Assembly (NCBI GenBank): GCA_022711335.1
Contig: JAKLFF010000001.1
Location: 405,754 to 469,753, forward strand
DNA from: Patescibacteria group bacterium
GTDB lineage: Bacteria; Patescibacteriota; Minisyncoccia; Moranbacterales; UBA2206
Direction: 5' to 3'
Length of the DNA stretch: 64,000 bases
The notes below the pieces were generated by a model, which was not told the DNA's origin, made no database searches, and saw only the letters and a list, made by a program, of their open reading frames with translations. Shown piece after piece: positions 1 to 59,188 of the stretch (its first letter is position 1; each line of letters starts with the position of its first letter). The position numbers and the translations under genes were made by a program.

Positions 1-367
1 AAATGTGATGGATGTATTGATTAACCTTATCACTAAAATAATCGCTCTTTATTCCTTCTCTCCTGTCTGAGGAGAGATGTCCCGAAGGGACAGAGAGGTG
101 GGAGCCAATATTCGGTTTAACTAATAAATGACCAGTCATTTTGAGATGTATGTATAGCGTTTTTCCGCCAGAAAGATCAACAAAAATATTTTTTCCGATT
201 CTCCTAGCTCCCAGAATCTTCAGGTTTTTGATTTCTTTTTTTAACTCTTTAATAGATTTTCCCTTAATCGCTTTTCCCCAATCACTCCAAAAATCAGTGA
301 TCGCGTCACCTTTGATTTTTTTGTTCAGATCATCGATTATGGTTTGGACTTCAGGTAGTTCCGGCAT
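1..367 (-). CDS. Formamidopyrimidine/endonuclease VIII-family DNA glycosylase (Fpg/Nei), N-terminal part only; gene runs off the window start
   Basis: Reverse-strand translation from the ATG at 367 gives MPELPEVQTIIDDL...GKNIFVDLSGGKTLYIHLKMTGHLL. The N-terminal PELPEV catalytic-proline motif and the H2TH-family fold pattern are classic Fpg/Nei. There is no stop before position 1. It contains an in-frame palindromic insert (~55-108). Confidence 0.6.
   Translation of the reverse strand, partial: MPELPEVQTIIDDLNKKIKGDAITDFWSDWGKAIKGKSIKELKKEIKNLKILGARRIGKNIFVDLSGGKTLYIHLKMTGHLLVKPNIGSHLSVPSGHLSSDRREGIKSDYFSDKVNQYIHHI
55..108. repeat. Intragenic palindromic element copy inside fpg
   Basis: TCTCCTGTCTGAGGAGAGATGTCCCGAAGGGACAGAGAGGTGGG has the same core as 27661-27712. 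It is translated in frame within fpg as ...GSHLSVPSGHLSSDRRE.... Confidence 0.55.
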
Positions 368-3278: not shown

Positions 3279-3316
3279 CAAAAAAGACGCGAGTATTTCG
3301 CGTCTCTACATTTTTT
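3279..3316 (-). terminator. Rho-independent terminator downstream of polA (possibly bidirectional)
   Basis: AGACGCGAGTATTTCGCGTCT hairpin, flanked by an A-run on the + strand (a U-run for the minus transcript) and TTTTTT on the other side. Confidence 0.45.
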
Positions 3317-3346
3317 GTTCCATGTTTTATGTTATATGCTATATGA

Positions 3347-6052
3347 CTAAATTTCTCCCCAATTATCCCCAATCTTCACGTCGACGAGTAGCGGAACTTT
3401 GAGCTTATAAACTGATTCCATAATTTCCTTAACTTTCTTTGCTACTTCTTCGGCAATTTCTTCCTTTACTTCAAGTATTATTTCGTCGTGAACCTGTAAT
3501 ATCATTCGTATATTCGTATTGGATTCGTAGTTCGTAGAGACTTCTATCATCGCCAGTTTCACAATGTCGGCTGCCAGACCCTGGATCGGCATATTAATTG
3601 CCATTCGCTCGGCGGCGTTTTGAACTTGGAAGTTAGGAGAATTTATTTCGTGGATATAGCGCCGGCGGCCGACTTCCGTTTCCACATATTCATGCTCCCT
3701 GGCAAATGCTTTCGTGTTTTTGATATAACTGGCCACTCCCTGAAACTTTTCCATATATTCATCGATGAATTTTTTGGCTTCTTCGCGATCGATTCCAGCG
3801 GACTGGGAAAATCCGAAGACACTCATGCCATAAATTATCCCGAAATTAAGAGCTTTCGCTTTTCTCCTCATAGCTTCCGTGACTTGGGACAAGGTAACCT
3901 TGTTTATTTCTGCCGCTGTTGCCCGATGGATATCTTCCCCTTTCCAAAAAAGATCAATGAGTTTTTTGTCTTCACTGACGTGAGCAACCACTCGAAGATC
4001 AATTTGAGAATAGTCAGCACTGACGAGTTTCCAGCCTTTTTCCGCTTCAAATGCTACACGAAGAAGTTGGCCCAAGTCTGTCCGAATAGGAATATTTTGG
4101 AGATTGGGTTCAGAAGAGCTTAGTCTCCCCGTGGCTGTAACAGCTTGATTATAGGTCGTGTGAATTCTTTGATCTTTATCAACAAGAAGCGGCAGCGCAT
4201 CAAGGTAGGTGGTTTTTAGTTTGAAAACTTCCCGGTATTCTTCTATTTTTTCAATAATTTTATGTTCCTGCTTGATTTTCTGCAGTTCCGTGGAAGCCGT
4301 GGAATAGTCGGTTTTCCCTTTTTTGATATCCACCGTGGGAATTTTCAGCTTTTCAAATAATATCGGTGCCAATTGCTTTGGAGAATTGATATTAAATTTT
4401 TCTCCTGCTAATTTGTAGATGCTTTTTTCCAAGTTTTCAATCCTTTTTCCAATTTTAGCTGAAATGCCTTTGAAAATAATCGTATTTAATTTTACTCCGA
4501 ATATTTCCATTTCAGAGAGAATCCTGATGAGCGGTGTTTCAATATTTTCAAAAACGTATTTCAAATTATTCTTTTTGTCCTGCGTTTCGCATATTTTTTC
4601 CATTTTTTCTTCCAATATATTTTTCAACTTGAAGATATAGCCGGCACTCTGGCAATATTTTTCCGCCATAACTTTCGGGGATTCTATTTCCAGCCCCAGC
4701 TGCCCTTTTTTTTCCAGAGTTTCTATTTCTTCACCTAGATTCTCTAAAACCAGCTTTTCCATTTCTATTTTGGCACCGGGATTAAGAACATAAGCCGCCA
4801 GCATTATATCAAATAATTTCCCCTCGATATTTATTCCATAGCGTTCCATTATTTCTATGTCCTTTTTCAAATCAAAACCGATTTTCATGATTTTTTTGTT
4901 CTGAAATATTCTTTTGATGGCTGCTTTATTTTTTTCACTATACTCAATATAATTCGCCCGGCCAGTCTTCCAACTGAAAGCCACGCCCCAAAGCTCCCGT
5001 TCTAAAATTTTCTCCCCGCTGGTTTTAAGTTGAATGGATATTTCTTCCTGTTTTTCAAGATTTTTAAAAAATTCATCTATATTTTTATCATCTACATATT
5101 CATACTTAAAGTCTCTTACCCCTTTTGTATTTTTATTCGTAGATTCGAATTTTATTCGTAGATTCGAATCGGTCATGGGTATTCTTTTTACCAGGCTATA
5201 GAAATTTAGGTCATTAAATAATCTCACTAATTTTTCCCGGTCAAATTCATGCGTCCTGGCTTTTTCAAGATCAATTTCCACCGGAACATTAGTTCGAATA
5301 GTGGCCAGTTTTTTGCTTTGAATGGCAATGCTTCGATCACGTTCCAGTTTGTCTTTCACCGCCCCTTTTACTTCATCCAGATTGGCATATACATTTTCCA
5401 AAGTTTCATATTTTTTAAGAAGTTCGATGGCGGTTTTTTCCCCAATACCTTTTACACCGGGGATATTGTCCGACGCATCTCCGCGAAGACCTTTAAAATC
5501 AATAAGTTGTTCCGGGGTAAGTGCATAGCGTTCTTTTATTTTTTCACTGTCATATAAAACAGCATCAGAAAGACCCCGACGCATAGTATAAACTTTAGTT
5601 TTCCCATTAACGAGCTGCAACGTATCTAAATCTCCGGTTACAATTATATTTTCGATTCCGCCAGCCGGCGGATTTTCTTCGACATATTTCACAACTGTTC
5701 CAATCACATCGTCCGCTTCAAACCCTTGCTTTTCCAAAATGGGAATATTCATTGCCCGCACCACCTCTTTGACGCGTCCAATCTGCGCATATAGTTCATC
5801 CGGAGCTTTCACTCTCGTTGCTTTGTATTCTTTGTATTCCTCATGCCGAAAAGTCGGTCCGGCCAGGTCGAAGGTAGCAATGATATAGTCCGGCTGGAAT
5901 TTGGCAATCACCGAAAGAATGGTCGAAGCAAACCCATAAACCGCATTGACCAGCTCACCGCTTTTTGTTGAAAGCGGCGGCAGGGCATGATAAGAACGAT
6001 GAATAATAGCATTGCCATCAATAAGAATCAATTTTGGAGATGATTTATTCAT
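3347..6052 (-). CDS. polA: DNA polymerase I
   Basis: 901 aa. The N-terminal 5'-3' exonuclease pattern (LILIDGNAIIHRSYHALPPL, ...GIGEKTA) is followed by the family-A polymerase motifs (RRKAKALNFGIIYG, QVHDEIILEV). Confidence 0.9.
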   Translation of the reverse strand: MNKSSPKLILIDGNAIIHRSYHALPPLSTKSGELVNAVYGFASTILSVIAKFQPDYIIATFDLAGPTFRHEEYKEYKATRVKAPDELYAQIGRVKEVVRAMNIPILEKQGFEADDVIGTVVKYVEENPPAGGIENIIVTGDLDTLQLVNGKTKVYTMRRGLSDAVLYDSEKIKERYALTPEQLIDFKGLRGDASDNIPGVKGIGEKTAIELLKKYETLENVYANLDEVKGAVKDKLERDRSIAIQSKKLATIRTNVPVEIDLEKARTHEFDREKLVRLFNDLNFYSLVKRIPMTDSNLRIKFESTNKNTKGVRDFKYEYVDDKNIDEFFKNLEKQEEISIQLKTSGEKILERELWGVAFSWKTGRANYIEYSEKNKAAIKRIFQNKKIMKIGFDLKKDIEIMERYGINIEGKLFDIMLAAYVLNPGAKIEMEKLVLENLGEEIETLEKKGQLGLEIESPKVMAEKYCQSAGYIFKLKNILEEKMEKICETQDKKNNLKYVFENIETPLIRILSEMEIFGVKLNTIIFKGISAKIGKRIENLEKSIYKLAGEKFNINSPKQLAPILFEKLKIPTVDIKKGKTDYSTASTELQKIKQEHKIIEKIEEYREVFKLKTTYLDALPLLVDKDQRIHTTYNQAVTATGRLSSSEPNLQNIPIRTDLGQLLRVAFEAEKGWKLVSADYSQIDLRVVAHVSEDKKLIDLFWKGEDIHRATAAEINKVTLSQVTEAMRRKAKALNFGIIYGMSVFGFSQSAGIDREEAKKFIDEYMEKFQGVASYIKNTKAFAREHEYVETEVGRRRYIHEINSPNFQVQNAAERMAINMPIQGLAADIVKLAMIEVSTNYESNTNIRMILQVHDEIILEVKEEIAEEVAKKVKEIMESVYKLKVPLLVDVKIGDNWGEI

Positions 6053-9051: not shown

Positions 9052-9142
9052 ATATTGAATTTAGTATTTGTGGAATTTAGAATAAAAATGCTACTAATAT
9101 ATTCCACATTCAAGATTCCCATTCAAAATTTGAAATTCTCAA

Positions 9143-12226: not shown

Positions 12227-12350
12227 TTGAATTTAGAATTGTGAATTTAGTATTTTGAATGGGAATATAGAATTTTGAATACTAGTGAATTCTAAATTCT
12301 TTATCCTTAACTCCCATTCTAAATTCTAAATACTAAATTCAAAATTCCAT
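12227..12350. repeat. AATTCTAAAT-family intergenic inverted-repeat element
   Basis: GAATTTAGAATT / GAATTTAGTATTT / GAATGGGAAT units are followed by their inverse complements (ATTCTAAATTC, CCCATTCTAAATTCTAAATACTAAATTC). The same motif family recurs at 9058-9090, 27270-27440, 35310-35345, 39695-39720 and 40210-40340, always just downstream of genes. Confidence 0.55.
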
Positions 12351-12782
12351 TAATAAAAGGCAGGTTCCTTTCTGTTTCTGTTTTGTTAACTATTAAAGGT
12401 AATCAGTGGTTCTGACAATAATCTGCAGGCAAGATCCCAAAGCAAGGCCCCGGGGGAAGAAACAGTGTCGAGGAACGGCACAGCCGAAACCAAACCGCCC
12501 ATGTCTGGACAAAAAAGTTTCCTAATTGAAGACAAAAGATAGAAGCCTCCAATTGCCTACAGTTTACTGCTAATCATCTAAAAAACGCGCAAATGCGATG
12601 TTTTTGATGACTTTAGAGCGTAGCATAACTTCCTTTTTTTGTCAAACGGGTATATAATAACACTAGGATTAATTTACAATGATCAATTATCAATTTACAT
12701 TGAATTAACAATTGATTAATTTTCAAAATTGAGTCATTGAAAATTGATTGAAAATTGTAAATTGAAAATTGAAAATTTACTG

Positions 12783-18160: not shown

Positions 18161-18335
18161 AACAAAAATATCAATTTCTTCTTAAAAGATATCCAAGAAT
18201 GTTTTTTAAAATTAAAAAGTTTTTTATTTCTTTTTCATAATAATGCAAAAAAAAATATTGTCAATGTTTTTTTAATATTTTTAATCGAAAAGTTTTTTCT
18301 TGAAAATAAATTATTAAAATGCTACTGTTGTCATA

Positions 18336-18420
18336 TAACGTATGACATGAAACATATAGCAAAATGCCGGAAAATAATTTTTTTTGTTATGTGCTATATG
18401 TTTCATGTTCCATAATTTTA
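18336..18420. repeat. CATG-rich dispersed palindromic repeat copy (5' of yebC)
   Basis: 16-bp inverted arms CATGAAACATATAGCA / TGCTATATGTTTCATG around a spacer that contains TTTTTTTTGTTATGTGCTATATG. Confidence 0.55.
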
Positions 18421-19133
18421 TGTCAGGCCACTCGCACTTCGCCGGAATAAAACACAAAAAAGGGATAAATGATGCCAAGCGCGCTAAGATTTTTACAAAA
18501 TTCGCAAAACCTATCGCCATCGCAGCGCAAGAAGGCGGAGGAAATCCCGATACCAATTTCAAATTGAGAATGGCGATTGATAAAGCGCGCCAGTTTAATA
18601 TGCCCAAAGAAAATATCGAAAGAGCCATCAAGCGCGGCACAGGAGAACTGAAAGGAGAAACGCTTCAAGAAATTGTTTATGAGGCCAAGGGGCCGGGAAA
18701 TGTTTTAATGCTTATTAGCGCGACAACTGATAATCGCAACCGCACTGTTTCAGAAATTAAAAGCATTCTTGCCAAGCTGGGAGGAAAAATGGGCGAAGCC
18801 GGATCAAGTATGTGGAATTTCGAACAAGCAGGAATCATTTTAGCCGATCCCGAAACACAAGCTCTGGATGAATTGGAACTTATGGCTATCGACTCCGGCG
18901 CCAAAGATATAAAAACAGAAGAAAATATTGTATCTGTTTTTACCGAAATGAGAGATCTTCAAAAAGTGAAAAATAAACTGGAAGAAAAGAAAGTCAAAGT
19001 TTTGGAGGCCAGCCTTGTTTTTATCCCTAAAAGCACCATCAAGCTGGATGAGAATGCCAAAGCTAGCTATGAAAAACTTCTGGAAGCGCTTGATGATCAA
19101 GATGATGTAAATGAAATTTATGACAACCTTTAA
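18420..19133 (+). CDS. yebC: YebC/PmpR-family probable transcriptional regulatory protein
   Basis: MSGHSHFAGIKHKKGINDAKRAKIFTKFAKPIAIAAQEGGGNPDTNFKLRMAIDKARQFNMPKENIERAIKRG is a textbook YebC N-terminus. The start was moved to the ATG at 18420. Confidence 0.8.
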   Translation: MSGHSHFAGIKHKKGINDAKRAKIFTKFAKPIAIAAQEGGGNPDTNFKLRMAIDKARQFNMPKENIERAIKRGTGELKGETLQEIVYEAKGPGNVLMLISATTDNRNRTVSEIKSILAKLGGKMGEAGSSMWNFEQAGIILADPETQALDELELMAIDSGAKDIKTEENIVSVFTEMRDLQKVKNKLEEKKVKVLEASLVFIPKSTIKLDENAKASYEKLLEALDDQDDVNEIYDNL

Positions 19134-19135
19134 CC

Positions 19136-19226
19136 ATAGAACATGAAACATGAAGCATGTAACAAAAATGAATACGGATTTATCCAAAAATGGTTTGTCC
19201 CATGCTCCATGTTCTATGTTACGTGT
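19136..19226. repeat. CATG-rich dispersed palindromic repeat copy (yebC-ruvC spacer, overlapping the ruvC start)
   Basis: CATAGAACATGAAACATGAAGCATG ... CCCATGCTCCATGTTCTATG with inverted arms CATAGAACATG/CATGTTCTATG. Confidence 0.55.
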
Positions 19227-27269: not shown

Positions 27270-27448
27270 GGCTTTAAATCCAAAATTCTAATATCCCTGC
27301 CTACCGGCAGGCAGGTAAATTCTAAATAATTTCAAAATCATAATATTAAAATTCTAAATAATTCCATTTATTGTTTGGTAAATTTGAATTTTGGCAGTTG
27401 TGATTTATCTAGAATTTGATGCTTGAGATTTAGAATTTTTAACTATTT

Positions 27449-28276
27449 ATGACACTCTTCCAAGCCATCATCCTCGGCCTTGTCCAGGGTCTCGGAGAAT
27501 TTCTGCCCATCTCTTCCTCCGGACATCTGGTTATTCTCCCATGGCTTTTTGATTTTTCTGATCCCGGACTTTCTTTCGATATCGCGCTTCATCTTGGAAC
27601 ACTTATTGCCATCGTTCTATATTTTTGGAAAGATTTTGTAAATATTATTTCTGCTTCATTATCCTCCTCTCCCTTAGGGAGAGGATGTCCCAAAGGGACA
27701 GGAGAGGGAAAAAACTACAGCTATTCAAAGAATCTGCTTTGGCTCCTCATCCTCGCCACCATCCCTGGCGCGATTTTTGGACTGCTTTTCGAAAAACAAG
27801 CGGAAACAATTTTTAGAAACCCTCTGCTTATTGCTGGGACATTGTCTATTGCTGGCTTGGTTTTATATCTAGCCGACAAATATGCCCTGCACAAAAAAGA
27901 TATCAATGGTATAACAAAAAAAGACGCCGTTATTATTGGCATCTCGCAAGCTTTCTCTATTATTCCGGGAATTTCAAGAGCTGGGGCAACAATAACTTCC
28001 GGCTTATTTTTGGGTCTAAGCAGAACTGCCGCTGCCCGATTTTCTTTCTTGCTTTCCGCTCCGATTATCTTCGGCGCCACGATCATTAAGCTTCCTGATT
28101 TTTTAAAAAGCAGCGTTGGACTTTATGAAATCATTGCCATCATCACCGCCGCCGTCTCTGGCTATGTCGCTATCGCATGGCTTTTGAATTTTGTAGAAAA
28201 AGTCAGTTATAAAGTTTTTTTCTGGTATAGATTATTATTAGCCGTTATAATTGTTATAATTTGGTTTATAAAATAA
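27449..28276 (+). CDS. uppP: Undecaprenyl-diphosphatase UppP (BacA) with an in-frame palindromic insert
   Basis: MTLFQAIILGLVQGLGEFLPISSSGHL and ...SRAGATITSGLFLGL are both strong UppP signatures. The loop between helices carries extra residues SPLGRGCPKGTGEGK, encoded by the palindromic element at 27661-27712. Confidence 0.8.
   Translation: MTLFQAIILGLVQGLGEFLPISSSGHLVILPWLFDFSDPGLSFDIALHLGTLIAIVLYFWKDFVNIISASLSSSPLGRGCPKGTGEGKNYSYSKNLLWLLILATIPGAIFGLLFEKQAETIFRNPLLIAGTLSIAGLVLYLADKYALHKKDINGITKKDAVIIGISQAFSIIPGISRAGATITSGLFLGLSRTAAARFSFLLSAPIIFGATIIKLPDFLKSSVGLYEIIAIITAAVSGYVAIAWLLNFVEKVSYKVFFWYRLLLAVIIVIIWFIK
27661..27712. repeat. Intragenic palindromic element (family also present in fpg at ~55-108)
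   Basis: CCTCTCCCTTAGGGAGAGG + ATGTCCCAAAGGGACAG + GAGAGGG forms two consecutive hairpins. The core GAGAG[GA]ATGTCCC[GA]AAGGGACAG[AG]AGAGG is shared with 61-105. Confidence 0.6.
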
Positions 28277-30676: not shown

Positions 30677-30724
30677 ATTTTTTGTGCTTAAGCAATTCTA
30701 TTCTATCAAATCCAGGGAAAAGAA

Positions 30725-30815
30725 AAAAGGCGAGCGGGTCGTGGCGTGGTAGCCTATCCCGGATGCTCGCCCTTAGCGGTTTCGGTTTTTTTAGGGAGAC
30801 CGAAAACTCCCGCCG
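30725..30815. repeat. Structured ~85-bp element, copy 1 (direct repeat of 31737-31827)
   Basis: GGCGAGCGGGTCGTGGCGTGGTAGCCTATCCCGGATGCTCGCC (stem GGCGAGC/GCTCGCC) + TTAGCGGTTTCGGTTTTTTTAGGGAGACCGAAAACTCCC (second stem GGGAG/CTCCC). Nearly identical to the copy 1 kb away. Confidence 0.6.
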
Positions 30816-30841
30816 GCTATTCAGGGGATGCCGGTCACTCC

Positions 30842-31093
30842 TCAAAAAATTTGTTTTTTTCGGCCGGTCCACCAGCCGACTTCCTCCTCCCGCACCTTCA
30901 AGATGCAGGAGATCTCGAAGTAGTCCTTGGGCTCTCCAAAGCCCTCAGACTCTTCGACTGTGTCTAAAAACAACTGTTCCTCGCCGGTGGCGAGGAACTT
31001 CTTCTCTAATTCCCTGACCACGTCGCCGTGGCCAGAGTCGAACAACAGGCCGTGTCGCAGCCCGTTGTCCTTGATTTCAAATTTCTTTCCCAT
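30842..31093 (-). CDS. Hypothetical small protein (GC-rich islet)
   Basis: 83 aa from the ATG at 31093, with a strong RBS (AGAAAGGAGAAAAATATG). The codon usage is visibly GC-richer than in flanking genes. Confidence 0.4.
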   Translation of the reverse strand: MGKKFEIKDNGLRHGLLFDSGHGDVVRELEKKFLATGEEQLFLDTVEESEGFGEPKDYFEISCILKVREEEVGWWTGRKKQIF

Positions 31094-31251
31094 ATTTTTC
31101 TCCTTTCTATGGGAAATTAACTTCACTTCTGAACCCGCAAAGCCAATCTTTACGGGTTCGGAATGAAGGGCAAAACTTTTGTCGTGGTAGACTCAAGTCT
31201 TGCCATTCAAGTGGTTCCCTTTTTATATACCGCTGGGACAGCGGTCGGAAA

Positions 31252-31590
31252 TCAGAGTTTTTCAAAAATCACTCTGATTTCCTTAATCCGGAACCATCCT
31301 GCGTGGCGAAAGCCAAGCAGTTTGGTTCCGTCGACCGGGTCCATGACCCGGTCATTCTTGCAAAAGAGCACGGGCTTGTCAGGCCCGGCTATCTGCAAAA
31401 ACTGCTGCTGCAGCGGAAGTGGGGCCACGATGGCCACCACGTCCGCCGCAGCGATCTCCTCGGCCAATTCATGCGCCGAAGAGATCGTCCGATTGACCTG
31501 GTGAACTTCCACCAGGCCAAAAATTCTTTTCAAGTCGGCCGATTGCTCGGCCGACATCTCATGCCTGGAAAACCACAAGACTTTCGTCAT
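31252..31590 (-). CDS. Hypothetical small protein (GC-rich islet)
   Basis: 112 aa from the ATG at 31590 (RBS AGGAAAGGAGAATCTCATG): MTKVLWFSRHEMSAEQSADLKRIFG.... No motif recognised. Confidence 0.4.
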   Translation of the reverse strand: MTKVLWFSRHEMSAEQSADLKRIFGLVEVHQVNRTISSAHELAEEIAAADVVAIVAPLPLQQQFLQIAGPDKPVLFCKNDRVMDPVDGTKLLGFRHAGWFRIKEIRVIFEKL

Positions 31591-31736
31591 GAGATTCTCC
31601 TTTCCTGCTGAACATTTCCCTTGCGCCGTTTCGCTCCCAACCACATCCTGATCAGCATTCAGGACTGGGCCAAGCGCAAAGAAAATTTTTTCACTTCCGA
31701 TTCTGCGAAGACAATCCTCACAGACTCGGAATGAAA

Positions 31737-31827
31737 GGCGAGCGGGTTGTGGCGTGGTAGCCTATCCCGGGTGCTCGCCTATTTTAGGTTTCGGTTTTTT
31801 TAGGGAGACCGAAAACTCCCTTGAGAG
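31737..31827. repeat. Structured ~85-bp element, copy 2
   Basis: GGCGAGCGGGTTGTGGCGTGGTAGCCTATCCCGGGTGCTCGCC + TATTTTAGGTTTCGGTTTTTTTAGGGAGACCGAAAACTCCC. A truncated third partial copy (CGGAATGAAGGGC) is at ~31140-31165. Confidence 0.6.
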
Positions 31828-32067
31828 CTACCACATCCGGTTGTCACACCGGGGGCAGCCCTCGTTCTTGACGTAGACATACTCGTCTACGCCAAATTCC
31901 TGCCCGCACCGCGGGCAGGAGAAAAAATTTTCATAGACTGCCAGATGGCAGTCTATGCATTCCCTCGCCTTCCCGGCGAGGGAAAAAATCTGGTGTGGAC
32001 AATCGTCCACACCAGATAAAATTCCTTCACTGCTGCAAATTTCGCAGCAGACGAATTTCTTTGCCAT
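31828..32067 (-). CDS. Zinc-ribbon (multi-CxxC) small protein
   Basis: 79 aa from the ATG at 32067 (perfect RBS GAAAGGAGGAACGCC-ATG): MAKKFVCCEICSSEG...CPHQ...CIDCH...CPRCGQEF...CPRCDNRMW, with four CxxC pairs. GC-rich. Confidence 0.5.
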   Translation of the reverse strand: MAKKFVCCEICSSEGILSGVDDCPHQIFSLAGKARECIDCHLAVYENFFSCPRCGQEFGVDEYVYVKNEGCPRCDNRMW

Positions 32068-32326
32068 GGCGTTCCTCCTTTCATGGCAAATGTTAACCTT
32101 TCCCCAGCCAGTGTAACTCCCGACCAGTCCGACACAACGTCGGACCCGGGCCATAGCTGGTTTGTCCAGCACCAACTACTCCTCACTAACAAAAGTTTGT
32201 TTAATAAAGAAAAGTTGGTGCTGGATTTATTCGCATGTGCCCATTCGTTAGGGCTATTCGCATACTTCAACCGAGAGAAAATAAAAGCTAATTGAAATAT
32301 GTAATAATTTATGCTAAGCTATTGCT

Positions 32327-32632
32327 ATGAGTACGGAGCAAATAGAACAAAAACTTATAGAAGCCATTGAAAAAGATCCTCATAAAAAGGACATGAAAAA
32401 AGTGTCTCTTTTCGGTTCTTATATCTATGGCCAACCCCGTGAAGATTCTGACGTGGATGTTTTAGTGGAATTTGAACCTAATTCTAGTATTAGTCTTTTT
32501 GACTTGGTTCATATCCGCCGAAATTTTTCTGAATTTATCGGGAAAAAAGTTGATCTTCTGACACCCTCCGCTCTTAGCAAGTATTTCCGCGATGAAGTAC
32601 TAGCCAAAGCTAAAACCATTTATGAAAAATGA
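32327..32632 (+). CDS. Nucleotidyltransferase (MNT/MntA-type) antitoxin
   Basis: ...VSLFGSYIYGQPREDSDVDVLVEF has the GS...D.D pol-beta NTase signature. Its stop overlaps the start of the HEPN gene. Confidence 0.7.
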   Translation: MSTEQIEQKLIEAIEKDPHKKDMKKVSLFGSYIYGQPREDSDVDVLVEFEPNSSISLFDLVHIRRNFSEFIGKKVDLLTPSALSKYFRDEVLAKAKTIYEK

Positions 32633-32954
32633 TCTCGTTTTTATAGGACATATTCAGGACTCTATCAATAACATCAATGAGTTTATTGGAAACTCTGATT
32701 TTGAAAGTTTTTCTAAAAATAAACTAGTGCTTAGCGGCGTAGTTCACGAATTTGAAATTATTGGCGAAGCCTCCAATAAAATCAGCCGTGAATTTTGCGA
32801 TTCTCACCCGGAAATACCCTGGAGAGACATGATTGATATGCGAAATGTGCTTATTCATGAATATTTTGGTATTATTCCTGAATCCGTCTGGGAAGCTTAT
32901 AAAAAAGACCTCCCCAAGCTTAAAACGGCCATAGACCAAATACTCATTTCTTAA
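32622..32954 (+). CDS. HEPN-domain (DUF86/HepT-type) toxin
   Basis: ...DMIDMRNVLIHEYFGI carries the R-x(4-6)-H HEPN motif. Translationally coupled to the MNT gene. Confidence 0.7.
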   Translation: MKNDLVFIGHIQDSINNINEFIGNSDFESFSKNKLVLSGVVHEFEIIGEASNKISREFCDSHPEIPWRDMIDMRNVLIHEYFGIIPESVWEAYKKDLPKLKTAIDQILIS

Positions 32955-33609
32955 CTTCCATTTTTTCTCGGTTGAATAATATTCAATTTTCAAAGATCCG
33001 TTTTGCGGATTTTTTGATTCCACAAAAATGCCAGTGAGTGTTCATCCATTAAAGAGAAGAGAGATTTTCTTTAGCTAATGAATAAATAATACTCACTGAC
33101 ATTTTTTGACTCTCTTCTCTAGACTTTTAGAAAGCCTGCTCCTGATTCCTACCTCACCCTGCCCTCTCCTTATAAAGGAGAGTGGGATTTGATAAGAACC
33201 AAGGACCACTTTCTATCCCGACGATGGCTCGTTGGGAGAGAAATAAGCTTATTGCCATTCATCCAGCTATCTTTTTTTGGAACGCATGTATGCGTTCCCT
33301 ACAATCTCTCTTCCCTTTGGATGAATTTAGTATGCTGCTTATTTCCAGTGCCATTTTATGATCCTTACCGCCCTTTCAGGCGATTTGGATACATATTATG
33401 TATATTTAATGTTCTTGGTTACGTGTCTCTCTCCTCTTTGGGCGATATTTCATCGTAACGGGCCATTATATCAGATATTACACTAAATGTCAATTTAAAT
33501 AGACTTATACTATTTTTATCCTATCGTAAATAAGCCATTTATACCTTTAATTTGACAAATTATGGCTTATTTGCTATACTATAAATGTTGACTTATTTTT
33601 TCGACATAT

Positions 33610-34374: not shown

Positions 34375-35309
34375 GATTTTGCTTTGAGATAATTAAAAAC
34401 GCTCCTCACAGCAATGGCACCTTCGGCGGCCGCGGTAATGACTTGGCGGAATTTGTTTGATCCGTCGGTTATGTCTCCGGCCGCAAAGATGCCAGGAACC
34501 GAAGTGGAGCCGTCTGATTTTATTTTTATATACCCGTCTTTGTCGCTTTTAATATCCAAGTCATCCGCATAATTTATATATGGATCCGATCCGGCTTCAA
34601 TAAAGAGTCCGCTTATTTCAAGCAAACTGCTATTTTTATGTGGATTATCCAGTTCAACCCTTTCCAGTTTTTCCTGGCCGGATATTTTCACTACGTTGGT
34701 GTTATAAATAACTTCTATTTTCTCATTCTTCTTGATTGAATCAGCCCAAAAAGGCTCGCAGCGAAGCTCGCTTTTACGATAAATTATATAAACTTTCTTA
34801 CAGATATCAGCCAGATATAATGCCGCGCCTGCCGCGCTGTTGGATCCGCCAATCACTCCAACAGTCTTGTTTTTATAGAAAAAACCGTCGCAAGTGGCGC
34901 AATAGGAAACGCCTTTTCCCGCAAATTCTTTTTCTCCTAAAATGTCCAGCTTTCTCCTCTTCATGCCAGTGGCTAGTAACACAGTTTTAGTTTTTAAGGC
35001 TTCGTTATTTTCTAGTTCTGCAATAAATCTCCCTTCCTCTTCTTTTTTTATATTTTTAACCAAGCCTGGGATTATTTCTGCGCCGTACTTTTTAGCATGT
35101 TCTCCTAGTTTTTTTCCAAGCTCGGCTCCAGTCAGGTTTTCAATGCCTGGATAATTGTCGATTAGATGAGCTTCGGAGATCTGTCCGCCCAAAATCTGCC
35201 CGATAATAGCATGTTTTATCCCGTAGCGGGAAGCATAAATAGAAGCAGAAAGCCCCGCCGGACCAGAACCTATTATAATTAAATCATAAGATTTATCCAT
35301 AGCTTTCAT
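34371..35309 (-). CDS. trxB: Thioredoxin-disulfide reductase
   Basis: FAD site DLIIIGSGPAGLSASIYASR, redox-active CATCDG, NAD(P) site VGVIGGSNSAAGAALYL, and C-terminal IFAAGDITDG. Confidence 0.85.
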   Translation of the reverse strand: MKAMDKSYDLIIIGSGPAGLSASIYASRYGIKHAIIGQILGGQISEAHLIDNYPGIENLTGAELGKKLGEHAKKYGAEIIPGLVKNIKKEEEGRFIAELENNEALKTKTVLLATGMKRRKLDILGEKEFAGKGVSYCATCDGFFYKNKTVGVIGGSNSAAGAALYLADICKKVYIIYRKSELRCEPFWADSIKKNEKIEVIYNTNVVKISGQEKLERVELDNPHKNSSLLEISGLFIEAGSDPYINYADDLDIKSDKDGYIKIKSDGSTSVPGIFAAGDITDGSNKFRQVITAAAEGAIAVRSVFNYLKAKS

Positions 35310-35338
35310 TCAAAATTCCCAATTCTAAATTCAAAATT

Positions 35339-36496
35339 CTAATTTTTAATTGGCATCACGATATAGGTAAAATCATGTAAAACTTCGCCGGTTTGTTCAT
35401 TTATTTCCTTTAAAGCGATTGGCGTTGATTCACTGTTCATAAGAAAAGCCACTTTGGAAGTTGAGATGCTATTAATTCCATCTAAAAGATATTTTGAATT
35501 TAAAATTACTTCTTGAGATGGTCCAGAAACGTCAAATTTGAGCTCTGTTGAGTTTTCTCCAGTTTCCGCACTGCTAGCGCCTATAAAAATTTTCTTTACT
35601 CCAGAGTCAATTTTAATCGAAATCTCTCCTGATTTTCCCGAAGCAAAAATATTAGCCATTTTTACCGCGTTTTGAAACACGCTTTTTTCCAAAACTACCC
35701 TGGTTTTATAATCTTTTGGCATTATATGCTTATATTCAGGATATTTTCCATTAATCAACCTTGAAACAATTTTAGTCTCTTCTATTTCAAAAAAAATTTG
35801 CCCGGATTCAATCGTTATTTTCACATCACATTCTTCATTATTAGAAATAATTCTCATTACTTCATTTAATGTTCCAAATGGAATAATAATACTGTCTTTT
35901 TTGTTTATATAAGCCTCAAACACCTCTTTATTTATATTTTCCTTGTTTATACTAATTCTACTTTCAGAAAGACGAAAACTATCAGTTGAAGCAAAAAATA
36001 TCTCTTTTTGGCTTAAAATAAGGTTTATTCCAGTAAGCTCTTGTCTGGCTTCATTTTGAGCCACAGACACCATTTCCTTAGATAAGATATTTTTTAGATC
36101 AATACTATTAATATTTAATAGATATTCACTGCTTTTTTTAGGAATTAATGGAAAATCATCAGCTGATACCCCTTTTATAATTGCCTTAAAAGAGCCACTT
36201 TTTATTTTTATTCCCTGTTCAACACTTTCTATTAAAACATTATCTCCTTGAGGAAGATTATTAGAAAAACTACTAATTATTTTCGCTGGAATAGTTATTT
36301 TACCTTCTTTTTCCACTTTAACTCCCACTTTTACCTGAGCTCCCATTTCTAAATTTGTCGCGGAAAACACTAAAAACCCTTTTTTTGCTTCAAATAAAAT
36401 ATTATTTAGTATAGGCAAGGTGTTTTGCTTAGAAACAATCCTTTCTGTGTTGTATATCGCTTTTTTAAAGTTATCTTGAGTACAAATTAATTTCAT
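35339..36496 (-). CDS. dnaN: DNA polymerase III beta subunit (sliding clamp)
   Basis: 385 aa; MKLICTQDNFKKAIYNTERIVSKQNTLPILNNILFEA, three-domain length, positioned immediately downstream of dnaA. Confidence 0.85.
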   Translation of the reverse strand: MKLICTQDNFKKAIYNTERIVSKQNTLPILNNILFEAKKGFLVFSATNLEMGAQVKVGVKVEKEGKITIPAKIISSFSNNLPQGDNVLIESVEQGIKIKSGSFKAIIKGVSADDFPLIPKKSSEYLLNINSIDLKNILSKEMVSVAQNEARQELTGINLILSQKEIFFASTDSFRLSESRISINKENINKEVFEAYINKKDSIIIPFGTLNEVMRIISNNEECDVKITIESGQIFFEIEETKIVSRLINGKYPEYKHIMPKDYKTRVVLEKSVFQNAVKMANIFASGKSGEISIKIDSGVKKIFIGASSAETGENSTELKFDVSGPSQEVILNSKYLLDGINSISTSKVAFLMNSESTPIALKEINEQTGEVLHDFTYIVMPIKN

Positions 36497-39721: not shown

Positions 39722-40210
39722 ATGGAAAAGAATAATGAAGATCTTGAAATGGAAAAAAAAATAAAAAGAATTATTGAAGAGATGATTTCAAAAATGGGGT
39801 TCAAAGGAAGCGTGGAAATAATAAAGAAGGAAGAAGGTGAAAAAAAATCATATGTTTGCAATGTAAAAACACAAGAATCCAATTTCTTAATCGGACAATA
39901 TGGAATCAATTTGCAGTCGCTGCAGCACATCGCTCGGATGCTGGTCAGAAAAGAAATTTCGGAGAGAATTAATTTTATTATTGACATTAATTCTTATCGG
40001 ATGGATAAAAATGATTCAATTGTAAAATTGGCTAAAAATTTGGCTGAGGAAGCTCTTCAGGAAAAGAAAGCCGTAGTATTGCGTCCTATGGGCCCCTATG
40101 AACGCAGAATTGTCCATCTTGAACTGGCCAAAGACGATAGGATTAAAACAGAAAGCATAGGAGAGGGTGAAGACAGAAGAGTTGTAATCAAGCCAATAGA
40201 CCTTATTTAA
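39722..40210 (+). CDS. Jag/KhpB-like RNA-binding protein (KH + R3H domains)
   Basis: C-terminal R3H: VLRPMGPYERRIVHLELAKDDRIKTESIGEGEDRRVVIKP. The KH-like middle region is present. Confidence 0.7.
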   Translation: MEKNNEDLEMEKKIKRIIEEMISKMGFKGSVEIIKKEEGEKKSYVCNVKTQESNFLIGQYGINLQSLQHIARMLVRKEISERINFIIDINSYRMDKNDSIVKLAKNLAEEALQEKKAVVLRPMGPYERRIVHLELAKDDRIKTESIGEGEDRRVVIKPIDLI

Positions 40211-40340
40211 AAGAATTTAGAATTGGGAATTTCGAATTTAGAATGGGAATATGGAGCTTAGATCTTGAAGGAAATTAAAACCCAGTTTATTTTTAGTAGT
40301 TTTATTCTAAATTCTAAATACTAAATTCAAAATTCTATTT
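40210..40340. repeat. AATTCTAAAT-family intergenic inverted-repeat element
   Basis: AAGAATTTAGAATTGGGAATTTCGAATTTAGAATGGGAATATGGAG ... TTTTATTCTAAATTCTAAATACTAAATTCAAAATTC. Confidence 0.5.
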
Positions 40341-43410: not shown

Positions 43411-44647
43411 TTTTATCCTGCTTTTCTTAATCTACCTGCCTTTTCAGCTGGCGCTTAATCCAACCGAGGGTATCGATCTGGCTTCAATCAGGGTTATTAT
43501 CCTCCTCCTTTTTCTGCTATGGCTGGCTAAGGGACTCAAAAATAAAAAGGTGCTCATAAAGAACAATTCGAGCACAGTTTTAATTATTTTTTTTCTAGCT
43601 TTTAATTTAATTTCAATCGCTGTTTCGGGAAATTTAGACTGGTCAGTAAGGAAGCTCCTGTTTCTTTTTTCAATTTTTCCCGTTTATTTTGTGTTTTCTG
43701 ATATCATTTCCGATAAAAATAAGATGGAAAAAGCGGCAAAGGTTTTAGTCTGGAGCGGGAGCGCCGCCGCTTTTTTGGGAATCATCCAGTTTTTGTTACA
43801 ATTTTTGATAGGTCTTGAAAAAACTTATAAAATTTGGGCGAATTTCATCATCTGGCCTTTTTTGGGAAACAATTTCAGCGAAGCGGTTCTTAAAAATTCC
43901 AGCTGGCTTGTGAATATTTCAGGAAAAACGATTCTTAGGGCAACTTCTACTTTCCCAGATCCCCATATGCTTGCTTTTTTTCTAGGAATCTTGATTCCCT
44001 TGTCGCTGGGATTATTTCTAAAATCAAAAAAACCGCTATACCTGTTTTTTTTCACAGTTTTATTTGTTGGCGATGTCCTAACTTTTTCTAGAGGCGGATA
44101 TATTGGGCTTTTAGCGGGAGCTCTGGCAATGTTTTTTTCACTTTGGAAAAAATTCGGCCTAAAATATAAAATAACTTTATTTTTAGCAGCAGGGATGATA
44201 GCTGGCGTTCTGCTTATCCCCGGTCCGATTTCAACCAGATTTATTTCTAGTTTGCATCTGAATGAAGGTTCAAATGCCGGAAGAATTGAGATGTGGCAAA
44301 GAGCCGGAGAAATTATTTTAGACAAGCCGCTTTTTGGAACGGGGATTGGCAATTATCCCCTTGAAATCAAACCTGACGCCAGTTATCGCGATCCTATTTA
44401 TGCGCATAATACCTATTTGGATGTTGCTGTGGAAACAGGAATAGCCAATGCCATTATTTGGATAACGCTTCTGGCGGGCTCCGCTTTTATTTTTATAAAA
44501 AAAGCGAAAAAAGAGCCTTTCTTTTTTTGGCTGGCGATAAGTCTGGTTATTTTTTTTGCTCATTCTTTGGTTGAAACGGCTATTTATTCACCGGTTGTAC
44601 TGATATTGCTTTTGGTAATAATAAGTTTTACAAATGTTGAAGAGTAA
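43403..44647 (+). CDS. O-antigen ligase/polymerase-family membrane protein (Wzy_C-like)
   Basis: 414 aa polytopic with a large loop and ...FSRGGYIGLLAGALAMFF..., typical of the O-antigen ligase family. Confidence 0.5.
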   Translation: MFNFILLFLIYLPFQLALNPTEGIDLASIRVIILLLFLLWLAKGLKNKKVLIKNNSSTVLIIFFLAFNLISIAVSGNLDWSVRKLLFLFSIFPVYFVFSDIISDKNKMEKAAKVLVWSGSAAAFLGIIQFLLQFLIGLEKTYKIWANFIIWPFLGNNFSEAVLKNSSWLVNISGKTILRATSTFPDPHMLAFFLGILIPLSLGLFLKSKKPLYLFFFTVLFVGDVLTFSRGGYIGLLAGALAMFFSLWKKFGLKYKITLFLAAGMIAGVLLIPGPISTRFISSLHLNEGSNAGRIEMWQRAGEIILDKPLFGTGIGNYPLEIKPDASYRDPIYAHNTYLDVAVETGIANAIIWITLLAGSAFIFIKKAKKEPFFFWLAISLVIFFAHSLVETAIYSPVVLILLLVIISFTNVEE

Positions 44648-44696
44648 AATGTCCGCCAAAGGCGGATCCGCCTTTGGCGGAAAGAAAATATTTAAC

Positions 44697-45863
44697 ATGG
44701 AAAATCTAATTTATTTGGCAGTTATCTTTTTGCCGGCATATCTCGTCCGGTTTAAAATATTTGGTATCCCGACTAATATTCTAGAAATGCTGATTTTGAT
44801 AATTTTTATTAGATGGATTATTGGTTGTGGTAGAGACGCATTGCAATGCGTCTCTACGATAGGCTATAAAAAATATATTATACCGATATTTTTTATTTTT
44901 CTAGGGCTTGCCATTTCAACATTAGCTAACGGGGGGTATGCGGCAGGCCTTGGCATAATCAAAAGCTGGTTCTTTTTTCCAATGCTATTTGTTTTTTTGG
45001 CAAGTCAGATTTTAGATAAAGAAAAAATAATAAATGTTTATAAATCCCTTTATTTATCCGCTTTTTTAGTTTCATTGATATCTTTGGGATATTTGTTTTC
45101 GGGGCATATTACATATGATGGAAGATTGCAGGGGTTTTTCAATTCGCCGAATTATTTGGCGATGTACCTTGCGCCGGCGCTGATAATGTTGGTGCAAGTT
45201 CAAAGTTTTCCATCGAAGGCGGATCAGCTTATGGCTGAAAAGCTAAAAGTTTTGATTTTATTATCCGGATCAATTATATTAATTACTTTTTATTTTACTT
45301 ACTCTTACGCTGCTTGGATTTCTGTGATTTTGAGCCTAATTATGGTTTCTATTATTAAAAACAAAGCGCTGGTTAAAAATAAAACAATAATCATTTTAGT
45401 TTTGTTAGCTGCGTCGTTATTTATAATCCAGCTAAATAGTGAAAAATTAATTAATCTTAAAAATTATAATCGATCTTCCTTGGAATCAAGGATAATAATC
45501 TGGAAATCAGCTGAAAAAATGTTGGAGAATAACTGGGTTTTTGGAATCGGACCGGGGAATTTTCAGGAAAAATATCTTGAGTATCAAAAATATTACCCGC
45601 CTTATCTCGAATGGGCGGTTCCCCACCCGCACAACTTATACCTGGCTTTTTGGCTCTACGGAGGAGTTTTAGGGATTTTGGGATTTATCTTTCTGCTTGG
45701 TTTTTGGCTTGAGGATATTATTAAAAAAAGCGACAGCATAGTTAAATTTATCGCTTTTAGCATAATGTTCTATATTTTGATCCACGGAGCGATTGATACG
45801 AATTATTTCAAAAATGATCTGGCGATAATTTTTTGGCTGAATTTTCTGATTTTTAAAATATAA
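44697..45863 (+). CDS. O-antigen ligase-family membrane protein (WaaL/Wzy-like)
   Basis: Polytopic. ...HPHNLYLAFWLYGGVLGILGFIFLLG... is the O-antigen ligase signature region. The start was set at 44697 because the upstream part of the track ORF contains a 28-bp perfect palindrome (44651-44678). Confidence 0.55.
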   Translation: MENLIYLAVIFLPAYLVRFKIFGIPTNILEMLILIIFIRWIIGCGRDALQCVSTIGYKKYIIPIFFIFLGLAISTLANGGYAAGLGIIKSWFFFPMLFVFLASQILDKEKIINVYKSLYLSAFLVSLISLGYLFSGHITYDGRLQGFFNSPNYLAMYLAPALIMLVQVQSFPSKADQLMAEKLKVLILLSGSIILITFYFTYSYAAWISVILSLIMVSIIKNKALVKNKTIIILVLLAASLFIIQLNSEKLINLKNYNRSSLESRIIIWKSAEKMLENNWVFGIGPGNFQEKYLEYQKYYPPYLEWAVPHPHNLYLAFWLYGGVLGILGFIFLLGFWLEDIIKKSDSIVKFIAFSIMFYILIHGAIDTNYFKNDLAIIFWLNFLIFKI

Positions 45864-57919: not shown

Positions 57920-57992
57920 TTTTTGCAGATCCCTGCCTGCCGACAGGCAGGCTTCGCGTTGATTTCGCGATCAACGTTCAGGATGGCGCCGT
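57920..57992. repeat. Two adjacent hairpins in the spacer between the two VirB4-related ORFs
   Basis: CCCTGCCTGCCGACAGGCAGG (the same hairpin family as 27291-27312 downstream of PBP1A) followed by CGCGTTGATTTCGCGATCAACG. Confidence 0.5.
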
Positions 57993-58693: not shown

Positions 58694-59086
58694 CTATTTT
58701 AAATCCAGTATTTTTGAAATTTCTTCTATTTTTTGGCTGTTTAATTCTTTTTTCTTTAGCGGTCTAGGCTTATTTTTGGCTGTTTTTCTGACTGGCACGT
58801 CATTTTCTGCAGCCCTTTTCCATATATACATACGAGGGCGGAAAATAAAAGAAATTGACGATCCGATAAAAGTAATCAGAGAGACGTTGTAAGGACGATA
58901 AAAAGCTAAGGCTCCGAAAATAATTCCTACGATTACGCAAGAAATGACAAAGGCGGACGTATCGAGCAGATTAAAAAGAACAAGAAGGACTACTCCTCCG
59001 AGCGCCAGCCAGCCCAGCTGCTTGGCAGTGAGCGGACCTACGATCTTGTCTTCGATGTCTATAAATTGTGGAACATTGAACAGCAT
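58694..59086 (-). CDS. PrgI-family (VirB3-like) small membrane protein
   Basis: 130 aa: FIDIEDKIVGPLTAKQLGWLALGGVVLLVLFNLL + a second TM, matching the PrgI/VirB3-like pattern (a charged motif, then 2 TM). It sits directly upstream of the VirB4-related ORFs. Confidence 0.55.
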   Translation of the reverse strand: MLFNVPQFIDIEDKIVGPLTAKQLGWLALGGVVLLVLFNLLDTSAFVISCVIVGIIFGALAFYRPYNVSLITFIGSSISFIFRPRMYIWKRAAENDVPVRKTAKNKPRPLKKKELNSQKIEEISKILDLK

Positions 59087-59188
59087 TTGTCATATAGCAT
59101 ATATCATACAACATATAACAAAAATTATAGTTGTTCTGATATGCGCTTTTTTAATTTTACCATACTTTAAATCCAAAGTCCCCTTTTT

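Follow-up and report, generated by a model that had tools for sequence, protein, structure and literature searches.

The palindromic element in fpg and its counterpart in uppP

The 64,000-nt stretch analysed here (hereafter the window; positions 405,754 to 469,753 of contig JAKLFF010000001.1, assembly GCA_022711335.1, from a Patescibacteria group bacterium) opens within the 5′ part of fpg, the gene for Fpg (MutM), and carries at positions 55-103, inside this gene, a short palindromic element that is the subject of this study. This copy, referred to as copy A, spans ~45-48 nt of the plus strand and is composed of two abutting hairpins followed by a purine tail (Table 1); the sequence given for it in the initial annotation of the window was located at 57-102. 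Translation of the minus strand from the fpg start codon proceeds without a stop across the element, reading ...HLLVKPNIGSHLSVPSGHLSSDRREGIKSDYF... or, over a longer interval, ...HLKMTGHLLVKPNIGSHLSVPSGHLSSDRREGIKSDYFSDKVNQYIHHI, and the window translation matches the Pfam family Fapy_DNA_glyco, which is the N-terminal domain, with an E-value of 4.7e-20. Copy A is antisense to fpg and encodes Fpg residues ~89-105 (~S89-G105, SHLSVPSGHLSSDRREG), by which ~17 residues are added to the protein; the insert peptide SHLSVPSGHLSSDRRE, as predicted from the DNA, is assumed here to be the read-through product. The full protein of 300 residues, complete with H2TH and zinc-finger domains, is encoded in locus L001 (10337-11239).

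The same locus was retrieved elsewhere by looking up a neighbouring protein of 110 residues, and at least six independent assemblies have an uninterrupted Fpg frame, with contigs drawn from JGI, ENA and Logan that represent different samples and pipelines. Across the independent assemblies compared, copy A is identical save for one base of the hairpin-1 loop in one strain. Because Fpg is intact on contigs that were assembled independently, the insert is not an assembly artefact. Neither a target-site duplication nor terminal inverted repeats are visible at the borders of copy A (flanks ...ctttattcc / gggagccaat...), and these borders cannot be fixed exactly since the nearest element-free orthologue is just ~78-80% identical.

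A second copy, copy B, lies in uppP and displays the same three modules in the same order, namely a hairpin 1 of TCCTCTCCC-TTA-GGGAGAGGA, a hairpin 2 of TGTCCC-AAA-GGGACA and the tail GGAGAGGG. Both copies are on the plus strand of the window, and with fpg on the minus and uppP on the plus strand they occupy opposite coding strands. In the covariance model described below (R1), the scores are 64.6 bits for copy A and 65.2 bits for copy B, the next-best match reaching 21 bits, although the two high scores arise partly by construction because both copies are among the 26 seeds of the model, most of which come from other genomes. Exact matches to TGTCCCNNNGGGACA within the window are confined to copies A and B. 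The initial annotation had described the fpg segment as a second, in-frame copy of the uppP element, placed inside the Fpg N-terminal domain and on the opposite coding strand, and each part of this description is borne out; an interrupted Fpg frame, which it had named as a possible objection, is not what the independent assemblies show. A possible minimal third member at 33148-33190, which has a hairpin 1 and a tail without hairpin 2, is weak: it scores 14.5 bits, with an E-value of ~0.003 on a rough calibration, and its position is non-coding, a short way downstream of a HepT/nucleotidyltransferase pair (32327-32954), with no open reading frame (ORF) spanning it.

The insert is predicted to lie in a disordered loop of Fpg

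When the protein is compared by phmmer with the sequences of the Protein Data Bank, it aligns to Lactococcus lactis Fpg as residues 1-80 and 119-299, leaving 38 residues opposite 13. As the initial annotation had suggested that the structure be modelled, an AlphaFold2 model was made for P0001, a strain variant that is 98% identical to the window Fpg. The model has a mean predicted local distance difference test (pLDDT) score of 83 and overlays with MutM/Fpg structures at target-normalised template modelling (TM) scores of 0.86-0.88. Residues 87-107 have pLDDT values below 50 and no secondary structure, and are flanked by a strand (80-84) and a helix (110-118). The insert is accordingly modelled within a disordered surface loop, with the fold predicted to be preserved. 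The residues that are invariant among homologues are all present in this Fpg (the N-terminal PELPEV, K59, M77, R137/F139 and four zinc-finger cysteines), and we take these to be the catalytic, DNA-wedge and zinc-finger residues of the enzyme.

The loop itself is highly variable. Among 45 Fpg homologues (64-98% identical), the segment HLLVK-(D)YF ranges from 8 to 36 residues and encloses unrelated, odd peptides. At the DNA level the loop measures 72 nt in the window fpg, compared with 36 nt for L095 and 33 nt for L096, the short state being the A-rich SKIKNQKSKLRN, and copy A is therefore an insertion relative to these orthologues. The element is absent from the closest Fpg relatives (73-80% identity). 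Two orthologues at 64-66% identity, L113 (encoding P0079) and L114 (encoding P0056), each have a diverged member of the family at this position, likewise antisense, with a score of 21.9 bits; in one of the two the middle hairpin is a different one, and in the other it is missing. In two further homologues, P0004 and P0006, the loop peptide is PLLIKERE..PSPLQGEGARRADEV, and the order of its parts (hairpin 1 first, tail last) makes these loops appear to carry a relative in sense orientation, in which case at least two separate insertion events have taken place in the Fpg loop. The loop of L097 (gene at 5001-5936) is occupied by a palindromic insert of the CGTGAAACG/CGTTACGCG type, with the peptide RETHNVKRTAHSVKRETR...HVTSYALRE. 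At the peptide level, NFQFPISNFQ and KFQTNSK in the Fpg loop of relatives, as well as PPKFQRNLER in UppP, look like in-frame tracts of an AAATTC type. Judged from these sequences, the Fpg loop is a hot spot that has been repeatedly occupied by different repeats.

Repeats of several of these kinds are also present in the window outside genes. Those of the CATATAACGTATGACATGAAACAT type, which are related to the L097 insert, are intergenic at 3306-3350, 18328-18413, 19131-19168 and 59086-59130, and AT-rich GAATTT/AAATTC tracts are intergenic at 9100-9142, 12229-12353, 35292-35353 and 40207-40339. On the contig that encodes P0004 (JGI 3300075153), a gene for a reverse transcriptase of 329 residues (RVT_1) is the direct upstream neighbour of fpg and overlaps the start of that gene, and the fpg loop there holds two other repeat-like peptides. 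A target of a diversity-generating retroelement was considered for the window insert and set aside, as no defining features are visible despite the reverse transcriptase gene upstream of fpg in this one relative. An RNA-level intron of the bulge-helix-bulge type was likewise set aside, none of its defining features being visible.

The element belongs to a family found in many phyla

To place the two copies in a wider context, the pattern AGAG(N)ATGTCCCNNNGGGACAG was scanned over the GTDB representatives, one genome per species, amounting to 596 Gb. The exact pattern was found in 88 stretches, ~55 of which also possess an upstream pyrimidine/purine hairpin and a downstream G(T/A)GAGGG tail, neither of which formed part of the search pattern. 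A further ~30 look like chance matches that have neither hairpin 1 nor tail; by our estimate, 18 specified bases would give ~35 chance matches in a uniform-composition database of 596 Gb. Full-architecture copies are present in three Elusimicrobia metagenome-assembled genomes (MAGs), each with several copies among the matches, in Alphaproteobacteria and others (Hyphomicrobium, Rhizobiaceae, Ensifer, Thermomonas, Sinimarinibacterium, Deinococcus), in Polyangiaceae (Myxococcota), the Deltaproteobacteria MAG UBA10199, Dehalococcoidia (Chloroflexota) and Gastranaerophilales, and in several Patescibacteria, including Parcubacteria and Saccharibacteria. Multiple copies among the scan matches are a feature of several MAGs. 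In Harrisonbacteria MAGs, which fall outside the set of ~55, hairpin 2 occurs within arrays of other small hairpins.

Together these copies define the family as a hairpin 1 of CTCTCC..GGAGAG, a variable hairpin 2 and a tail of G[TA]GAGG. The form seen in the candidate phyla radiation (CPR) is TTCTCTCC-N6-8-GGAGAG-ATGTCCC-NNN-GGGACAG-AGAGGT, which copy A matches exactly, and both window copies agree base by base with independent copies in other phyla, with all three modules in order and the stems paired. A strict pattern of the CPR type recovers nine loci from metagenomes, two of which are the fpg locus itself. The family spans many phyla and is not specific to CPR. The initial annotation had argued for a real family and had named absence of the motif elsewhere as an outcome that would speak against it; with ~55 full-architecture copies in many phyla, the motif is abundant in other genomes.

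The possibility that the similarity is a product of chance, low-complexity convergence or faulty assembly can be given next to no weight. It is true that the low-complexity purine and pyrimidine arms permit register shifts, that the number of chance-like genome matches is close to expectation, and that the two pattern matches in viral contigs are of the same chance-like kind, with neither hairpin 1 nor tail. However, 0.00 matches to the 27-nt core of copies A and B are expected in shuffles, the flanks that were not searched for are conserved in ~55 copies, and the fpg locus is the same across samples and pipelines save for the single loop base. No Rfam family matches the window at the gathering score, and around the copies in seven other loci Rfam gives chance-level matches alone. 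Plasmid sequences gave no blastn match with the high-GC consensus, to which the low-complexity filter may have contributed. In the literature searched, there is no paper on such elements in CPR.

Base pairing is conserved while the middle module is exchanged

A covariance model, R1, was built from 26 copies and retrieves 99 members from 48 sources. Over the 98 distinct members, 98.3% of pair cells are paired, a share that is 85.4% for shuffles and does not exceed 76.8% when partners are slid; both-sided changes occur in 10 of 14 pairs, and the hairpin-1 arms covary across the family, figures that are to be read with the caveat that the alignment was fitted to the model and that purine/pyrimidine arms permit register shifts. 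The hairpins are kept, with compensatory changes, across the family.

Diverged members reveal a general architecture in which hairpin 1 and the tail enclose a middle hairpin that is optional and exchangeable. The middle hairpin is GCCCGCGC-GAA-GCGCGGGC in Rhodoplanes and TGGCC-GAA-GGCCG in L113, and some copies have no middle hairpin yet retain the tail. An additional hairpin precedes the tail in L028 and L083, and in the saccharibacterial locus L086 a further palindrome is nested in the hairpin-1 loop. The window itself contains intergenic CCTGCC(T)..GGCAGG hairpins at 27296-27315 and 57932-57952, within AT-rich repeats of the AAATTCTAAAT type, and the CTGCCTGCCGGCAGG motif of these hairpins is also the one nested in the hairpin-1 loop of L086.

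In-frame copies in CPR proteins point to a DNA-level repeat

Apart from Fpg and UppP, copies were found inside the genes of several further CPR proteins (Table 1), and the frame is kept at all eight intragenic sites that can be assigned to known proteins. The core is translated as RDVPxGQ in ComF, CysRS and DnaG, as ERCPEGTER in Dus and as GRGCPKGTGEG in UppP, and its opposite strand as LSVPSGHLS in Fpg and RsmH. As the peptides that this one DNA sequence encodes, in three frames and from both strands, are unrelated, a peptide-level motif is ruled out, and the element is a DNA-level repeat rather than a protein motif. Relative to solved homologues the insertion amounts to 12 residues in RsmH (1m6y), ~10 in Dus (1vhn) and ~9-10 in UppP (copy B; E. 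coli UppP, 5oon). The 28-nt core is free of stops in all six frames, and family copies have on average 5.0 open frames versus 3.8 in shuffles.

Residence in frame is only part of the picture, as roughly every second CPR copy is located between genes or in a short ORF of doubtful standing (L051, L086, L069/L103, L061/L104, L098, L013, L058). The earlier proposal that the element is tolerated only as an in-frame insert holds for the intragenic copies and fails for the family overall. An Elusimicrobia copy (L032:316-369) is apparently read in frame as PLPLGEDVPEGQVRG within an ORF that resembles acyl-CoA synthetases and that recurs in several Elusimicrobia loci, from which it seems that in-frame residence may not be limited to CPR.

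These comparisons bear directly on whether the insert is selected as protein, with ~17 residues giving Fpg (and another peptide giving UppP) a lineage-specific function and the palindromy being incidental. In favour of such a role, strains keep the insert stably and in frame, and UppP orthologues retain the peptide frame SPSPxGRG...TGEG. We nevertheless regard it as very improbable: unrelated peptides arise from the same DNA in different proteins, frames and strands, the segment is predicted to be disordered, the same Fpg loop is unrelated or empty in close relatives, and what is conserved is base pairing and not codons.

Persistence and turnover at the two window sites

Among UppP orthologues ranging from 100% to ~64% identity, the peptide SPSPxGRG...TGEG, which corresponds to hairpin 1 and the tail, is kept in the same loop and the same frame. 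The part between, followed at the peptide level, varies and includes CPKGT, CPEGT, CREVT, WLREAEPD, WLESRKAGREAD and CPPKFQRNLERT. At fpg, comparison of L001 (10337-11239) with L003 (2985-3887) reveals 22 differences, all 22 of which lie between gene nucleotides 173 and 359. This divergent patch of ~190 nt is centred on the element (nt 266-313), and the remaining ~700 nt are identical between the two. A third haplotype, L106, is of the L001 type upstream of the element and of the L003 type from the hairpin-1 loop onward. On sequence comparison, the patch and the switch in L106 have the look of a tract of recombination or gene conversion that surrounds the repeat, and the strain patterns at fpg fit either selection on the hairpins or repeated correction between copies.

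Selection on the hairpins would follow if they were a cis-acting DNA or mRNA signal under purifying selection, for instance one that binds a protein, stabilises the mRNA or directs its processing, or makes translation pause. Several observations agree with this: the stems are conserved with compensatory changes across phyla; the UppP loop and frame are retained to ~64% identity and the middle hairpin there, as far as peptides tell, changes but stays palindrome-like; the members in L113 and L114 share the Fpg site and orientation; and between strains the element is more conserved than the flanking synonymous sites. Set against these, the host genes have no function in common, and both orientations to transcription occur, so that the mRNAs do not share any one RNA structure or sequence. 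Furthermore, the closest Fpg relatives (73-80% identity) do not have the element and seemingly manage, intergenic copies exist as well, copies in other phyla form arrays or flank nuclease genes in the manner of mobile repeats, and there is no matching Rfam family. On balance we consider a cis-acting signal unlikely, although it is the chief competitor of the reading proposed below.

DUF559 as a candidate partner of the element

In other phyla the element is associated with genes of the DUF559 family. An all-against-all BLASTP comparison of the ORFs of the 88 loci found no protein family shared across phyla except DUF559, which is present in four loci, and the DUF559 genes are accompanied by the element on both sides (Table 1). 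Three Rhodoplanes DUF559 genes (L107, L108, L109) were then chosen by protein similarity alone, with the element ignored, and in all three there are family members at both ends of the gene. Seven model matches with E < 1e-3 were found in these three 4.4-kb loci, six of them no more than 150 nt away from the DUF559 gene and the seventh ~265 nt upstream. The bracketing layout, seen in Deinococcus, Hyphomicrobium, Rhodoplanes and relatives, runs from hairpin 1 through the optional hairpin 2 to the tail, then the DUF559 gene, and then back through an inverted tail and optional hairpin 2 to hairpin 1. In addition, some annotated DUF559 proteins have an N-terminal extension that contains the translation of the element, e.g., PLPRGEDVPKGQVRG in P0137.

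DUF559 is thus named here as a candidate partner enzyme of the element, on the strength of a genomic association that is found in other phyla only and for which the unbiased sample is from Alphaproteobacteria only. An ad hoc hidden Markov model (HMM) detected no DUF559 in the CPR loci examined, and in the literature searched DUF559 is mentioned in passing only, never in connection with repeats. We tentatively raise the idea that many phyla share an unrecognised mobile or homing system in which the element is the non-autonomous partner and a small DUF559 endonuclease the enzyme, and consider it rather unlikely at present. In such a system, structure-specific cleavage of the hairpin would be followed by repair from other copies. 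This would explain the spread of solo copies, the maintenance of the palindromes, the swapping of middle hairpins and the mosaic tract centred on the fpg copy; in CPR, permissive protein loops would be the main places of survival.

Table 1 Element copies, their modules, in-frame host proteins and element-flanked DUF559 genes. Positions refer to the window unless preceded by a locus number.
Feature	Position	Strand or orientation	Description
fpg/mutM, 5′ part	1..367	-	codons 1-122 of 300; start ATG at 367; gene continues beyond window start
Copy A, hairpin 1	57-77	+	perfect 8-bp stem: pyrimidine arm TCTCTCCT, loop GTCTG, purine arm AGGAGAGA
Copy A, hairpin 2 (variable middle module)	78-92	+	perfect 6-bp stem TGTCCC-GAA-GGGACA; abuts hairpin 1
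Copy A, 3′ tail	93-102	+	GAGAGGTGGG; near-repeat of hairpin-1 purine arm; GGTGAGGG in high-GC genomes (family alignments)
Copy B	27660..27710 (modules 27665-27709)	+	inside uppP 27449-28276, sense, read as SSSPLGRGCPKGTGEG
Possible minimal third member (weak)	33148..33190	-	hairpin 1 CTCTCCTT-ATA-AAGGAGAG and GGTGAGG tail; hairpin 2 absent
In-frame copy, Fpg	window	antisense	SHLSVPSGHLSSDRREG
In-frame copy, UppP	window	sense	SSSPLGRGCPKGTGEG
In-frame copy, ComF-like phosphoribosyltransferase	L011, L099, L100 (orthologous)	sense	..RRDVPxGQRGK
In-frame copy, tRNA-dihydrouridine synthase (Dus)	L020	sense	KERCPEGTERY
In-frame copy, CysRS	L049	sense	ARDVPKGQK
In-frame copy, RsmH	L056	antisense	ISVPSGHLSG
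In-frame copy, DnaG	L091	sense	MRDVPQGQRS
In-frame copy, 475-aa protein, CapA-like by eye	L101	antisense	
DUF559 locus, Deinococcus sp. VB343	L024:1939-2521		family copy on each side, direct orientation
DUF559 loci, two Hyphomicrobium MAGs	L077:3195-3802, L085:2163-2695		composite repeats on both sides
DUF559 locus, Dehalococcoidia chromosome	L048:5744-6786		gene between two clusters of four model matches each
DUF559 loci, Rhodoplanes-like	L107:1938-2382, L109:1924-2512		flanking members inverted, tail beside gene

A probable dispersed repeat tolerated in a permissive loop

We propose, with a probability of roughly two in three, that copy A is a dispersed DNA repeat, akin to repetitive extragenic palindromic (REP) sequences and Rickettsia palindromic elements (RPEs), that is tolerated and somehow maintained in the disordered loop of Fpg. 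The unit would act as nucleic acid and not as peptide. A copy would have entered the AT-rich DNA that encodes the permissive surface loop of Fpg, between the strand GHLLVK and the helix DYFSDKVNQ, and could persist there because the frame was kept, the core being free of stops in six frames, and because ~17 disordered residues leave the conserved residues of Fpg unchanged. In the gene-dense genomes of CPR, permissive loops may be among the few refuges available to repeats, which would account for the appearance of the same element in unrelated housekeeping proteins and in either orientation. We infer that a structure-specific nuclease or transposase, acting in trans from a gene elsewhere in the genome, spreads or renews the copies, with insertion or gene conversion as the subsequent step.

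Several points weigh against a tolerated repeat. Translation of the Fpg insert is assumed from the DNA. The 64-kb window carries just two full copies and one doubtful one, and its 56 ORFs include no transposase (Y1_Tnp included), no RAYT (REP-associated tyrosine transposase) and no DUF559 protein according to Pfam scans and the ad hoc DUF559 HMM; the search of these scans for nucleases and transposases returned RuvC and HepT only. No filled and empty alleles were found among near-identical strains, and there is no direct evidence of mobility in the lineage. The copies are also long-lived at orthologous sites (UppP to 64% identity, Fpg in L113 and L114) with their hairpins maintained, which fits a cis-acting function equally well, and within the divergent fpg patch the element differs at 1 of 48 nt compared with 13% in the flanks (binomial P ~0.01).

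Palindromic elements residing in frame within genes have reportedly been recognised in Rickettsia since the work of Ogata and colleagues in 2000. The present element resembles the RPEs in that a small genome packed with genes has palindromic repeats, in frame, in housekeeping genes that are unrelated to one another, and in that, as far as can be judged from the sequences, the repeats appear to be read through, at sites that tolerate them in the fold, and to be retained across species. The two differ in that RPE-1 measures ~100-150 bp and is restricted to Rickettsia, whereas the present unit, hosted here by a Candidatus Moranbacteria genome, has ~45-48 nt, two hairpins and a tail, and occurs in many phyla; this separation is made by size and host alone. 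RPEs are mentioned in PMC10969869 and PMC3733652. The latter (Di Nocera et al. 2013) describes intragenic GTAG/CGTC-tagged REPs, many of them in replication and repair genes, whose position in loops or linkers probably makes them neutral, and notes that different REPs can occur at about the same site of one gene, e.g., recB of Xanthomonas. These tagged REPs are short, GC-rich palindromes that are usually extragenic, and the parallels with copy A are apparent in their occasional presence inside ORFs, in a repair gene, in a loop and at a shared site. Unlike them, however, copy A, copy B and the family consensus contain no GTAG, CTAC, CGTC or GACG, and consist of hairpin 1, a variable hairpin and a tail instead of a single tagged palindrome.

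Comparison with the REP/REPIN-RAYT systems is similarly mixed. Both comprise short hairpin repeats (imperfect GC-rich palindromes of 20-40 bp in REPs, two abutting stems of 8 and 6 bp in copy A), and the DUF559 gene is flanked on both sides as RAYT genes are by REPs, but the flanked gene encodes a Vsr-like PD-(D/E)XK nuclease and not an HUH/Y1 transposase, and its role is only proposed here; moreover, the copy number in the window is low and neither RAYT nor DUF559 is found there. In contrast to typical REPs, which are extragenic, copies A and B are intragenic, with other CPR copies being intergenic. [quoted passage not shown] The GC clusters and double-hairpin elements of fungal mitochondria are GC-rich hairpins in an AT-rich genome, which are sometimes located in coding sequence and show nested insertions. 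They provide an analogy only, since they belong to another kingdom and genome type and have no sequence relation to the present family.

In-frame palindromes are already known from Rickettsia and from a few REP-rich bacteria, and what is described here is their occurrence in CPR, with a family that is undescribed in the literature searched. That literature likewise contains no account of an element identical across phyla, of module swapping in situ or of an association with DUF559. An architecture of 45 nt is common to CPR and to distant phyla almost base for base. The family also explains lineage-specific loop insertions and odd, low-complexity peptides of CPR proteins (SPLGRG..., HLSVPSGH..., RDVPKGQ...), and annotators should be aware that such peptides are repeat-derived and that the loops are insertion hot spots. 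If the DUF559 link were true, it would provide a role for a very widespread domain whose function is so far unassigned, and a second REP-like system beside RAYT.

Other features of the window

The 56 ORFs of the window include the housekeeping genes for RuvB, RuvC, DnaA, DnaN, RnpA, YidC and PolA, and further encode cell-envelope enzymes, the HepT/nucleotidyltransferase pair, type IV secretion-like proteins and proteins without assigned function. Between 35339 and 38330, the minus strand encodes dnaN and dnaA, after which come rnpA, yidC and a gene of the KH/R3H (Jag-like) kind, all three on the plus strand, an order from which it follows that the window probably spans the region of the replication origin.

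A region of ~1.6 kb at 30680-32300 is GC-rich, contains no convincing ORFs and is dense in hairpins, with many perfect stems of 9-13 bp and internal repeats of 59-67 nt (30726/31734 and 31113/31681). Rfam gives no match to it at the gathering score and, at E<1, chance-level matches only; the region may represent an array of repeats or a structured RNA of large size. A direct repeat of 300 nt with 88% identity connects 47487-47786 and 50460-50759, which lie in two ORFs without a Pfam match (47073-48407 and 49239-50963) that are probably paralogous genes. This block adjoins type IV secretion-like genes, namely a TraG/VirB4-like gene at 56006-57823 and a PrgI-like gene at 58694-59086.

A gene resembling O-antigen ligases (Wzy_C; 44634-45863) contains a GTAG-tagged perfect palindrome in frame at 44830-44857, GTAGAGACGCATTGCAATGCGTCTCTAC, which encodes GRDALQCVST, apparently between hydrophobic segments, and which represents the third in-frame intragenic palindrome of the window, of a different family. 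At the start of the same ORF (44652-44681) lies a perfect palindrome of 30 nt, TCCGCCAAAGGCGGATCCGCCTTTGGCGGA, probably just upstream of the true start (MENLIY...).

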